54,975 nucleotides of DNA from Candidatus Micrarchaeota archaeon. GTDB taxonomy: Archaea > Micrarchaeota > Micrarchaeia > Micrarchaeales > Micrarchaeaceae. The notes under the pieces are model-generated. The model saw only the letters and a program-made list of their open reading frames with translations, made no database searches and was not told the DNA's origin. Below are positions 20,567-22,468 of the stretch, in pieces. The translations under genes and the position numbers were made by a program. Position 1 is the stretch's first letter; each line of letters starts with the position of its first letter. The DNA lies in contig DAHWIF010000002.1 in assembly GCA_027345565.1 (NCBI GenBank), positions 1-54,975 on the forward strand, given 5' to 3'.

Positions 20567-20569
20567 GTC

Positions 20570-20695
20570 AATTTGTTTAGTGGATTGAGCTCGCGCTCAA
20601 CGGTTAATGGTCGGGCGTATGCAATGCATACGCCACGGGTGGATGAGAATAGGGTTGTTGCAGAATACGCATAATGTATTGTCTGAAACAAGATG
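20570..20695 (-). ncRNA. Candidate structured small RNA
   Basis: Orphan promoter AAGATTTAAATA (20728-20717) upstream; perfect stems at 20614-20634 and 20585-20600. Confidence 0.25.
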
Positions 20696-20786
20696 TAGTG
20701 TATTCGCTCAGTAGTATATTTAAATCTTACGGATTGTACCATTTATTTAGATAAATGACGTAGTTAACCGCATATTCTATAAAAGG

Positions 20787-21101
20787 CTACCTGCCCCTTG
20801 CGCCGTTCTTGTATCTCTTTATTAGGTCAATTGCGTGGTTTATCGCTTTCCTGACATCTGCCGTTGTCCTCGCCCCTGTGCATATGATCTTGCCGTTCTT
20901 GAAGAGGAGCAGGGCGGCTTTTGGGTCATGCACCTTGAGTATGGCGCCTGGGAACTGCTCCGGCTCGTAGTCGACGTCCCTCGAGAGTTTTGCGAGCCCG
21001 TATAAGTCCAAGTCGGTATTGAGCGCAGTGTTCGCCACTATGTTGACTATAGTATAGGTGGGTTTGAGTACAACTGGTCTTTTTGGGGCATGTCCGGTCA
21101 T
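20787..21101 (-). CDS. Single-repeat TATA-binding-protein-like protein (half TBP)
   Basis: One TBP repeat: IVNIVA, LDL, YEPEQFPG, LLLFKNGKIICTGA. 104 aa; no second repeat seen in the downstream sequence. Confidence 0.85.
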   Translation of the reverse strand: MTGHAPKRPVVLKPTYTIVNIVANTALNTDLDLYGLAKLSRDVDYEPEQFPGAILKVHDPKAALLLFKNGKIICTGARTTADVRKAINHAIDLIKRYKNGARGR

Positions 21102-21169
21102 GTAATGCAGGATAAGTTCTATCTAAAGGTATAAATACATTCACGGCAAATGAGCCTAGATGTGAGTTT

Positions 21170-21454
21170 ATGTCAAAAAGGTCTCAGGGACTCCTTGTAG
21201 GAAAAACGAGGCATCTGGCAAGGCATCACAAGCCGTCGACGCTAAATACGAACGCAATAATAAAGCAGTTCTCAATAGGCGATAAGGTGTACATAGTGCC
21301 GAAGGGCGGCATGCACAACATACCCCATCCAAGGTATAAGGGTAGGACCGGCACTGTGGTGGAAAAAAGGGGATCCGCTTATGTGGTGAAGGTCAGGATA
21401 ATGAATGCAGAACGCACGCTCATAGTGCCGTCGCTGCATCTTGATAAGGCCTAG
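21170..21454 (+). CDS. rpl21e: 50S ribosomal protein L21e
   Basis: FSIGDKVYI, PHPRYKGRTGTVVEKRGSAYVV, LIVPSLHL. Confidence 0.95.
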   Translation: MSKRSQGLLVGKTRHLARHHKPSTLNTNAIIKQFSIGDKVYIVPKGGMHNIPHPRYKGRTGTVVEKRGSAYVVKVRIMNAERTLIVPSLHLDKA

Positions 21455-22023
21455 TACCTGCCCTCTCTCTTCACATATGGCTTCGTGAACATGTAGAAGC
21501 GCTCGTTGCCCTGCAGCTCCAGCATTATGCGTTCTATTATCAGCTTCCTCGGCTCCTGCAGCAGAGACACGCGCTTGTTTATGTCGTCGAAGCTCTCGAA
21601 CCTCTTCTCCTCCCTTGCCTTGAGTATCGCTGCGAGATGCTTCTTCCCTACACCAGGAAGCAGCTCGAGCGAATGCTGCCTTATGTTCAGCGGCCCGGCG
21701 TTGTTGAACACATCTACGAATCTCTTCTCGTTAGCGTCCATTATCTGCAATATGACCTTCTGCAGGCCGTTCTTAGCCGTCTGTGTAAGGTCCCCGTACG
21801 ATATCCTCGCCTTTATAAGCGCAACCTTGTCGCGCTCTTCTCTGCCTATATAGACCCTCTCGCCGAGCGACATGGTTACGCCAGGCTTTGGCGTAACCTC
21901 CAAGAGGGTGAACCACTCCTCCCCGATAAGCTGCGCTATCGGTTCGGACCTTGTAGAAAAGGACTTCCCAGTAGACATGAAGTCAAGCACGTATGCGTAC
22001 TCCTCACGTCTTTCCTCTTGCAT
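21451..22023 (-). CDS. DUF655 family HhH nucleic-acid-binding protein
   Basis: EEYAYVLDF, GEEWFTLLE, HSLELLPGVGKK, FESFDDI; follows rpoF as is usual in archaea. Confidence 0.9.
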   Translation of the reverse strand: MQEERREEYAYVLDFMSTGKSFSTRSEPIAQLIGEEWFTLLEVTPKPGVTMSLGERVYIGREERDKVALIKARISYGDLTQTAKNGLQKVILQIMDANEKRFVDVFNNAGPLNIRQHSLELLPGVGKKHLAAILKAREEKRFESFDDINKRVSLLQEPRKLIIERIMLELQGNERFYMFTKPYVKREGRY

Positions 22024-22049
22024 ATTGGCATTACCCCTACCATTCAAAC

Positions 22050-22379
22050 CTACTTCGGATTCACTATAGACATAATCTTCTTTATCTCTGCGTCCGTGAA
22101 GGCTTTCTTCTCTCCGACGAGTATCTGCTTGAGAAGCGTCTCGCTCTTCGGCATCGTGTTCAGTATAGCAAGCACTGTCCGCTGCGATAGTGTGCCGAGC
22201 TCCTCCAGCGCCTTCCTCGTCTTCTGCTCCGAGCTCTTTGAGGTAGCGAATTTCGACGCATGCTCCAGGGCTATCTGCTGCTCATAGGTAAGCTCGCGCT
22301 CCTTCTTCCGCGCCTCAAGTATCTCAAGCGCCTCGTTGAGAGAAACGTGTCCTGTGTTCTTCGACTCTTTGCCTATCAT
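22050..22379 (-). CDS. rpoF: RNA polymerase subunit F (Rpo4)
   Basis: VSLNEALEIL, ELTYEQQIALEHASKF, NTMPKS; adjacent to DUF655. Confidence 0.9.
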   Translation of the reverse strand: MIGKESKNTGHVSLNEALEILEARKKERELTYEQQIALEHASKFATSKSSEQKTRKALEELGTLSQRTVLAILNTMPKSETLLKQILVGEKKAFTDAEIKKIMSIVNPK

Positions 22380-22468
22380 ACCCACCACAGCACTAAGTAT
22401 TTAGTAATTGATACCGATACCTACAAGATAATAATCATTCCGTTGATTGGGTATAAAAAGGTTTGTCC

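Follow-up and report, generated by a model that had tools for sequence, protein, structure and literature searches.

A stand-alone, one-lobe TATA-binding protein appears to be the sole TBP type of a lineage of Micrarchaeota

The genome of a Candidatus Micrarchaeota archaeon encodes a TATA-binding protein (TBP) that consists of a single lobe and most probably functions as a general TBP through the dimerization of one-lobe subunits, either with itself (A2), with a paralogous lobe (A·B), or both. The gene, denoted TBP-A, is located at 20787..21101, on the minus strand, of the analyzed stretch of DNA (contig DAHWIF010000002.1, 54,975 nucleotides; hereafter, the window), and its product is 104 amino acids long. 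Transcription initiation in archaea and eukaryotes depends on TBP, whose pseudo-symmetric build from two lobes is textbook knowledge. The usual account of the origin of TBP starts from a homodimeric one-lobe ancestor, which was duplicated and then fused; we know of no living example so far of a one-lobe protein doing the TBP job. Stand-alone TBP domains in archaea are already in print, and what is new here, as far as can be judged from sequence comparison, is the one-lobe TBP as the sole TBP type of a lineage.

The TBP-A ORF extends from an ATG start to a TAG stop and produces a single match to the Pfam TBP profile (PF00352), in which residues 16-97 correspond to positions 2-85 of the 85 profile positions, with a score of 90.5 bits (E 6.3e-26) compared with the cut-off of 22.9 bits. 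The first-pass annotation, which had reported exactly one TBP repeat with a set of conserved motifs, a basic tail and a clean stop, holds in all these particulars. The NIVAN motif occupies residues 20-24, YEPEQFPG residues 45-52 and LLLFKNGKIICTG residues 64-76, both phenylalanine positions (F50 and F67) are kept, and KRYKNGARGR forms a basic C-terminal tail; the N-terminal tail is basic as well, and the pI is 9.9. Across 51 A-type sequences, F50, F67 and the complete Y45-G52 stretch are invariant, and the equivalent residues are invariant across 39 sequences of the B type (the paralog described below); the LLFKNGK-ICTG motif is invariant in both sets. We take the Phe pair to be the DNA-kinking residues and YEPEQFPG to be the stirrup, the roles that are familiar from the TBP literature.

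The best PDB match of TBP-A is 2z8u_A (E 2.1e-35), in two aligned stretches, and the protein aligns about equally to the first and the second lobes of the solved archaeal TBPs. The AF2 monomer model, obtained with an alignment of 51 relatives, has a mean pLDDT of 82.9, with just 65-70 for residues 1-30, and matches the TBP-lobe fold (S1-H1-S2-S3-S4-S5-H2) except that S1 is not formed in the monomer. In a Foldseek search with this model, ranks 1-44 are TBP chains throughout, aligned over about 70 columns with an rmsd of 1.0-1.5 A. With the canonical archaeal TBPs (2Z8U, 1MP9, 1PCZ, 1AIS/1D3U; two-lobed, ∼180-200 amino acids), TBP-A has in common the Pfam family, the lobe fold and the DNA-contact and stirrup motifs, and it is 36-41% identical to either lobe, but the canonical proteins carry two lobes per polypeptide whereas TBP-A has one, flanked by basic tails. 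Thus, TBP-A matches the PF00352 profile, has the fold and the Phe and stirrup motifs of a TBP lobe and is orthologous to the general TBP gene, but contains one repeat instead of two in tandem, with no second repeat in any of the six frames, which puts it in the TBP domain family but outside the canonical architecture.

TBP-A is under strong purifying selection. For the A-type genes, the median dN/dS is 0.13, not near 1, and the maximum is 0.31 (77 genes; 670 pairs with dS between 0.05 and 1.5); for TBP-A and its closest relative, the value is 0.014. The relatives of TBP-A at 65-99% identity come, by their record titles, from Micrarchaeota, which places the organism in this phylum. In public records, the one-lobe proteins are called either ‘TATA-box-binding protein' or ‘hypothetical protein', so that annotation is affected, with some one-lobe TBP genes recorded as hypothetical.

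Upstream, TBP-A is separated from the divergent gene of ribosomal protein L21e (rpl21e; 21170..21454, plus strand; PF01157, E 4e-16) by a promoter spacer of 68 bp (21102..21169), the short shared promoter region that had been noticed in the first pass. This spacer contains a near-palindromic TATA box, TATAAATA (21130-21137), which lies 29-36 nt from the ATG of TBP-A and 33-40 nt from the ATG of rpl21e; this one box would be used by both genes. Next to rpl21e are a DUF655 gene (21451-22047, minus strand; PF04919, E 2e-62) and the gene for the RNA polymerase subunit Rpo4/RpoF (22050-22388, minus strand; PF03874, E 4e-7). On the other side, 220 bp (20567..20786) separate the TBP-A stop from a convergent GCD14-like methyltransferase gene. 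As had been claimed, this spacer harbors no second TBP repeat, and no remnant of one, in a six-frame HMM scan at E<=10.

The same downstream spacer includes an RNA-like element of ∼60 nt (20611-20674), which is kept in 64 of the 80 A-type loci. Searches of the TBP-A flanks, including this element, for Rfam families and tRNA yielded nothing above the threshold, and the complementarity of the element to rRNA and other targets amounts to scattered 10-11-mer matches only.

The arrangement of genes around TBP-A is widely conserved. Looking in the relatives for the same gene of about 100 codons next to rpl21e was among the checks proposed in the first pass. In 75 of the 80 A-type loci, rpl21e lies upstream of the TBP gene in divergent orientation, with two of the five exceptions cut by contig ends. 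The TBP gene is divergent from rpl21e-rpoF-DUF655 also in the single-repeat loci of the sister family from the same order (f3; the family of the window is denoted f1) and in the single-repeat loci of other families, and the two-repeat TBPs of all eight two-repeat families sampled show the same arrangement, so that the canonical TBP of sister families occupies the same genomic locus as TBP-A. In Iainarchaeota, TBP is divergent from rpl21e-rpoF-DUF655 in 8 of the 10 loci, in 7 of them directly adjacent. Given this shared context, TBP-A is a positional ortholog of the canonical TBP gene, and the rpl21e-rpoF-DUF655 block, on the evidence of gene order, appears to mark the ancestral TBP locus, which is now held by TBP-A.

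The simplest trivial explanation, namely, that TBP-A is a recent truncation, a pseudogene or an assembly break of a two-repeat gene, would draw on other families of the class, in which this locus is occupied by two-repeat TBPs. The probability of this explanation is practically negligible. All 81 A-type loci (the window and 80 others) are single-repeat, in independent assemblies, the dN/dS of 0.13 speaks against decay, the 220-bp downstream spacer lacks any repeat remnant, and the gene is covered collinearly by contigs from runs of three studies, where one of the runs may be that of the source sample. The stop codon is no artifact of the assembly. The possibility that close relatives would carry a two-repeat TBP at this locus, which had been named in advance as damaging to the single-lobe claim, came true only at a distance, in other families of the class, but within the genus, the family and the order, the locus encodes a single repeat throughout.

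The genome of the window (G000; ∼600 kb, 84% complete) contains two TBP repeats only, as judged by a six-frame HMM scan at E<=10: TBP-A and one on contig C15. The latter, paralog B, is an ORF of 116 amino acids, or 102 amino acids if translated from Met15, carries one Pfam TBP repeat (E 1.8e-25) and is 48% identical to A. It is flanked by the gene for an FAD-dependent oxidoreductase on one side and a glycosyltransferase gene on the other, so that, unlike in the case of canonical TBP, the organism possesses paralogous lobes, A and B, at unlinked loci. Paralog B is also constrained (median dN/dS of 0.093 for 203 pairs, with one outlier at 3.8), and in all 57 B loci, a stop codon follows within 1-45 residues past the core. 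The B sequences form a clade with a long stem and have invariant residues of their own, H33, A34, I99, S100, Y102 and V103; the monomer model of B, which was obtained with a shallow alignment, has a mean pLDDT of 50. No two-repeat TBP was found in the six-frame scan of the whole genome, and because that genome is 84% complete, it is mainly the closed genomes of relatives that speak for the lack of a two-lobe TBP. The genome also encodes a single, ordinary TFB, whose two cyclin repeats lie in one frame, and TFE-alpha.

The two-gene complement is typical of the family. Among 60 genomes of the order, exactly two single repeats, unlinked, were detected in 33 of the 36 f1 genomes; the exceptions are a genome with one match (G004, 57% complete), a genome with none (G026, 92% complete) and a genome with two singles and a two-repeat gene (G021). 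The absence of any TBP match in a genome that is 92% complete indicates that scans of metagenome-assembled genomes can miss genes. In a scan of 151 genomes of the phylum with completeness of at least 85%, A and B are both kept in 41 of the 45 f1 genomes (the unpublished genome G074 was counted here only as one f1 genome with two matches). The closed genome G010, from the same genus as the window organism, has A and B only, and no two-repeat TBP was found in it; similarly, the complete genome of the co-cultured Ca. Micrarchaeum A_DKE contains two single-repeat genes and no two-repeat TBP.

Across the phylum, a TBP match was obtained in 148 of the 151 genomes, and exactly one match in 41. In the 40 of these 41 that are listed, the stop-to-stop frame is 100-182 amino acids long; these 40 one-repeat genomes comprise 15 of the 25 f3 genomes and 25 genomes from ten other families, and include the single-contig genomes G044 and G047 and the 6-contig genome G064. 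Two-repeat TBPs of ∼190-220 amino acids are present in eight families (f4, f5, f6, f8, f9, f13, f19 and f21; ∼50 genomes). Within the order of the window organism, only two two-repeat genes were found, both on short contigs and both foreign in type. One (G021:C43) is 84% identical to a Thaumarchaeota TBP, and the other (G041:C77), from a contig of 3.7 kb, shares 56-58% identity with Thermoplasmata TBPs. The B clade, with a support of 99, consists of 6 f1 and 6 f3 rows, so that B is older than the split between the two families; B was lost at least twice in f3, where the A-type ortholog, A', is always kept. The one-lobe state of TBP, which most of the phylum shares, is clade-wide and old in Micrarchaeota, and is no accident.

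These distributions bear on a second explanation, under which TBP-A would be an accessory or modulating single-domain TBP-like protein that acts beside a canonical TBP missed by the assembly. The incompleteness of the window's genome (84%) leaves room for such a gene, and single-domain proteins of this kind are known from other archaea (Brindefalk et al. 2013, PMC3597702). Nevertheless, we consider this explanation barely credible, because no two-repeat TBP is found in G010, G044, G047 or A_DKE, all closed or complete, the only two-repeat genes of the order sit on short contigs and are foreign in type, TBP-A occupies what appears to be the ancestral TBP locus and, with 90 bits, is as TBP-like as real lobes. 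Coexistence with a full-length TBP, which characterizes the accessory monopartite class, is not observed in G000, G010 or A_DKE. The role of a competitor or modulator of canonical TBP, which had been offered in the first pass as an alternative to the homodimer, was accordingly given up, there being no canonical TBP in these genomes to compete with.

The single-domain proteins in print differ from TBP-A in telling ways. Halobacterium TbpA, in the account of Brindefalk et al. (2013, PMC3597702), likewise consists of one TBP domain standing alone and groups with true TBP lobes, but it closely resembles the full-length TBPs that its species has alongside it, and is non-essential; TBP-A, in contrast, occurs where no full-length TBP was found and is the positional ortholog of TBP. 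The monopartite TBP-domain proteins of Thermococcales, as given in Table 3 of the same paper (PMC3597702), are ∼82-136 amino acids long, strongly diverged and accompanied by a normal TBP; they resemble TBP-A in being small and in having the single-domain TBP fold but are diverged where TBP-A keeps every TBP motif. A further observation concerns Iainarchaeota, in which 25 of the 51 genomes encode weak TBP-like ORFs of ∼95 amino acids that score 20-32 bits with the Pfam model, compared with 90 for TBP-A; these may be of the same kind as the Thermococcales proteins. Ravarani et al. (2020, PMC7221094) may refer to proteins of the TBP-A kind, although the main text, in the portions that deal with them, names no taxa, does not describe the genomic context and does not say that such a protein is the sole TBP. 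In a comparative paper on DPANN (PMC8407392), TBP is, in the part that mentions it, merely listed as conserved. In the open-access full texts, no description was found of a lineage whose only TBP is a one-lobe protein, of the orthology of such a protein to the TBP locus, or of the size of TBP in Micrarchaeota; the supplements may list such sequences.

With one lobe per polypeptide, the saddle must be intermolecular. Two lobes would pair via their central S1 strands and C-terminal helices and thereby rebuild the ten-stranded saddle, which would bind and kink the TATA box with two Phe pairs, F50 and F67 of each subunit, each subunit also offering its YEPEQFPG stirrup. The single two-cyclin TFB would then bind one of the stirrups and the flanking DNA, and so set the direction of transcription. 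The partner lobe would be either a second A, in a homodimer, or B from contig C15, in a heterodimer, so that with two genes, up to three TBP species, A2, AB and B2, could be formed. A homodimer of TBP-A would be strictly two-fold symmetric, in contrast to the pseudo-symmetric saddle of canonical TBP. It is TFB with its recognition element, and not TBP, that orients the initiation complex in archaea, so that a strictly symmetric TBP would be mechanistically tolerable.

The claim of a genuine, selected stand-alone TBP lobe in a DPANN archaeon thus stands, with the saddle attainable only by pairing. The homodimer proposed in the first pass also remains plausible, considering that positional orthologs of TBP-A are the sole TBP-family gene in many relatives, including closed genomes, but paralog B had been missed, and the A·B pair is equally live. 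We consider the A2 homodimer probably competent, and the chances that the A·B heterodimer forms as well, the two not being mutually exclusive, about even. In favor of A2, 15 of the 25 f3 genomes have no TBP repeat other than the A-type ortholog; the losses of B in f3, at least two with A' kept, argue that an A-type lobe suffices alone. In favor of a role for A·B or B2 in f1, B is kept in nearly all genomes of this family and possesses invariant residues of its own, some of which map to the interface predicted for A·B.

The A·B complex was modeled with an own alignment for each chain, and the model has a score of 0.80 (0.81, 0.79 and 0.80 in the individual runs), compared with 0.01 for the best of 3 controls; of 80 solved complexes, 58 attain this mark, as do 2 of 110 mismatched pairs. 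At least 90% of the contacts are common to the runs, with a partner pLDDT of no less than 82. In the predicted interface, residues 10-29 of A run antiparallel to residues 13-34 of B, and the C-terminal helices of both chains join in; this S1/C-terminal-helix interface presumably corresponds to the inter-lobe packing of the solved TBPs. The B-specific invariant residues at the C-terminus (I99-S100-Y102-V103) fall in the predicted interface. Such a pass is expected from the likeness to solved two-lobe TBPs; it demonstrates this likeness, says little about the pairs that form in the cell and does not distinguish a heterodimer from a homodimer.

The strongest competitor of the preferred reading, in which A-type lobes can work as homodimers, is an obligate heterodimer, in which A and B stand in functionally for the N and C lobes of a TBP split between two genes, and A has no function in the absence of B. 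The joint retention of both genes, in 33 of the 36 and 41 of the 45 f1 genomes in the two scans, is compatible with such a division of labor, as are the purifying selection on both A and B, the long stem of the B clade and its own invariant residues, of which the C-terminal ones map to the predicted interface, and the score of the A·B model (0.80 vs 0.01 for the best control). We nevertheless judge an obligate heterodimer unlikely. The paralogs A and B originated inside the order and cluster together, apart from the N and C lobes of other archaea, B was lost at least twice in f3, leaving A' as the sole TBP repeat, 25 genomes from ten other families likewise have one repeat only, and the pass of the complex model does not discriminate between hetero- and homodimers.

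A monomeric lobe in some other role, for instance, nucleic acid binding in the manner of the RNase HIII N-domain, with initiation proceeding without a TBP saddle, was also considered. TBP-fold domains act singly in other proteins, according to the relevant part of Brindefalk et al. (PMC3597702). RNase H3 does appear in the Foldseek results for the TBP-A model, only as a weak row at rank 48 with a probability of 0.28. Against a monomer, there is full conservation of the TBP-specific DNA-contact and stirrup motifs, the genome still encodes TFB and TFE, a TATA-like signal peaks 26-40 nt upstream of the ATGs genome-wide, and S1 is unformed in the monomer model, with low pLDDT for residues 1-30, of which 10-29 make the core of the A·B interface. 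Taken with these observations, the monomeric role is highly improbable, and dimers of one-lobe subunits are the reading that we retain.

The symmetry of promoters was explored as a candidate signature of a symmetric TBP. An EM motif derived from 497 upstream regions of the window's genome, aaA..TtTAaATA..Tt, correlates with its own reverse complement at r = 0.94; the respective values are 0.89 for G044, which has one single lobe, and 0.87 for G097, which has a two-lobe TBP, and central A/T octamers are present in the short divergent spacers of all three genomes. With no contrast to the two-lobe G097 among the three DPANN genomes compared, this signature was rejected. The symmetric TATA boxes proposed in the first pass could hence not be linked to the half-TBP, the consensus being quasi-palindromic in a two-repeat relative, too.

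How the one-lobe state originated can be gleaned, with less certainty, from the repeats themselves. In the two-repeat TBPs of Micrarchaeota, the similarity of the N and C lobes is unusually high, with 51-74% identity (10 genes), and the intragenic N-C dS is 0.37-2.7; in 19 TBPs of other archaea, the identity of the lobes ranges from 35 to 57% (median, 47%). When 130 repeats were placed in a tree over 89 columns (LG+C20 PMSF, careful search, with the bootstrap not fully settled), all 76 repeats of Micrarchaeota and Iainarchaeota, be they singles, N lobes or C lobes, fall on one side of a branch supported at 100/99. On the other side, the N lobes of 27 other archaeal TBPs, among these 1 from Nanohaloarchaeota, 2 from Aenigmatarchaeota and 1 from Woesearchaeota, form one clade (96/89), and their C lobes form another (92/88). 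A single clade of all N lobes from the 36 two-repeat proteins, if enforced, lowers the log-likelihood by 61 units and does not pass the AU test (p = 0.0014); this grouping was named after a quick tree had been seen. At the columns that separate N from C lobes, there are shared residues, a D in 32 of 32 singles and in all 44 lobes of the two-lobe Micrarchaeota and Iainarchaeota proteins, and an L in 32 of 32 singles and in 41 of these 44 lobes, and the discriminating columns are mixed among the singles. As to which of the old lobes was kept, HMMs for the N lobe and the C lobe give the 32 singles nearly equal scores, with a mean difference of 0.7 bit and 15 of the 32 favoring N; the N/C scores are 94.9/89.6 for A and 96.7/97.5 for B. 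The interpretation of A and B as a split N half and C half was rejected, both clustering with the Micrarchaeota repeats, outside the N and C clades.

A tree was also built from the three short neighbor genes (403 columns, 53 genomes) and rooted on Iainarchaeota (100/99). In this tree, a single nested clade (82/79) unites the 13 two-repeat Micrarchaeota; its sister is single-repeat, and so are the other basal branches. The only single-repeat genome among the 51 of Iainarchaeota, G174, is basal in its phylum and long-branched. An ancestral one-lobe state, followed by one re-duplication of the lobe in each phylum, requires two changes on this tree, the smallest number of all, a polarity that leans on G174. 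The balance of this evidence tips slightly towards a one-lobe TBP already present in the common ancestor of Micrarchaeota and Iainarchaeota, the two-lobe forms in these phyla being independent re-duplications. Several duplications within the two-repeat clade of Micrarchaeota were considered and dropped: monophyly of the N lobes in this clade is not rejected (AU p = 0.10), and for that reason, only one duplication is claimed there.

The same repeat tree would be produced by a two-lobe ancestor, the lobes of which were homogenized by gene conversion, followed by several collapses to one lobe. The N-C dS of 0.37-1.0 in some genes is compatible with such conversion, and the case for re-duplication draws on short alignments (89 columns in the repeat tree) in which several supports are moderate. 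If, as the favored scenario of re-duplication has it, the common ancestor of the two phyla had a one-lobe TBP, this ancestral form most likely derived by the collapse of an ancient two-lobe gene.

A bolder proposition is that the one-lobe TBP of Micrarchaeota is not a collapsed gene but a direct descendant of the homodimeric ancestor that existed before the duplication, with Micrarchaeota and Iainarchaeota branching off prior to the duplication shared by the other archaea and eukaryotes, and duplicating the lobe at least twice later on. The topology of the repeat tree, with the N lobes of other archaea and their C lobes set against all repeats of Micrarchaeota and Iainarchaeota, is as this proposition predicts. 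It is, however, very unlikely, because the four TBPs from three other DPANN phyla have ordinary N and C lobes.

In summary, a whole archaeal lineage, represented among others by closed genomes and the co-cultured Ca. Micrarchaeum A_DKE, appears to run on one-lobe TBPs, with signs that TBP lost its defining duplication there and later acquired it anew. Such a lineage offers a natural test of the idea that TBP began as a dimer of identical halves. It makes accessible to experiment the behavior of a strictly symmetric TBP on TATA DNA and the manner in which TFB then sets the direction, the gain that comes from the fusion of the lobes, which sister clades seem to have re-fused, and the combinatorial use of TBPs (A2, AB and B2) in a 0.6-Mb genome with a single TFB.

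The gene for the one-lobe TATA-binding protein TBP-A and that for B, the second single-repeat TBP paralog of this genome, each belong to a short divergent gene pair, with spacers of 68 bp (window 21102-21169) and 65 bp (L002:1376-1440), respectively. The TBP-A spacer contains a single near-palindromic TATA box, TATAAATA, located approximately equidistantly from both start codons. The B spacer has a similarly placed near-palindromic box, TATTTAAA (L002:1404-1411), and a further box, TATAAATA, at L002:1422-1429; because of this second box, the true start of B may be Met15. Central A/T octamers are present in short divergent spacers in all three genomes that were checked.

Upstream of ATG codons across the genome, TATA-like hexamers are most frequent at a distance of 26-40 nt, with an example at window 21130-21137. 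The promoter consensus derived by EM motif search, aaA..TtTAaATA..Tt, is almost palindromic, correlating with its reverse complement at r = 0.94. This comparison, which spans three genomes, all of them DPANN, likewise yields self-reverse-complement correlations of 0.89 for G044, a micrarchaeal genome with one single-lobe TBP, and 0.87 for G097, which encodes a two-lobe TBP.

Just downstream of the TBP-A gene lies an RNA-like element of about 60 nt (window 20611-20674), represented by one copy in the genome. It comprises a hairpin, GGCGTATGC-loop-GCATACGCC, in which the closing pairs covary, followed by an invariant ∼30-mer that includes a C-box-like GGATGA and CAGA. The element is retained in 64 of the 80 loci that carry TBP-A or its orthologs, at 80-96% nucleotide identity, and the adjacent TBP-A protein is 65-99% identical among relatives. 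In metagenome contigs, the depth over the element is 10-40 times that of its flanks, and scans against Rfam families and for tRNA detected no match. The element is probably an unannotated small RNA.

Two-repeat TBP genes of a foreign type were found on short contigs in two Micrarchaeota bins, one 84% identical to Thaumarchaeota (G021:C43:2733-3251) and the other 56-58% identical to Thermoplasmata (G041:C77:2653-3174); both are likely to result from binning contamination. A member of the window's own family, G026 (92% complete), yields no TBP match in six frames at E<=0.001, a result that may stem from a gap in the assembly or from some true peculiarity of the genome.

In the phylum Iainarchaeota (51 genomes, G166-G220), 25 genomes encode a two-repeat TBP and, in addition, a third ORF of ∼94-155 aa that resembles TBP only weakly (20-32 bits). 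These ORFs may correspond to the diverged monopartite proteins known from Thermococcales. The sole TBP of G174, from the same phylum, is a single repeat in a 90-aa frame at the conserved locus (L428), where the TBP gene is divergent from rpl21e-rpoF-DUF655. Among related proteins from metagenomes, three repeats were identified in P0121 (283 aa, three Pfam stretches, encoded on a 989-nt contig), P0241 (272 aa) and P0279 (257 aa), and four repeats in P0243 (376 aa) and P0302 (702 aa). The number of repeats seems to be labile in this protein family.
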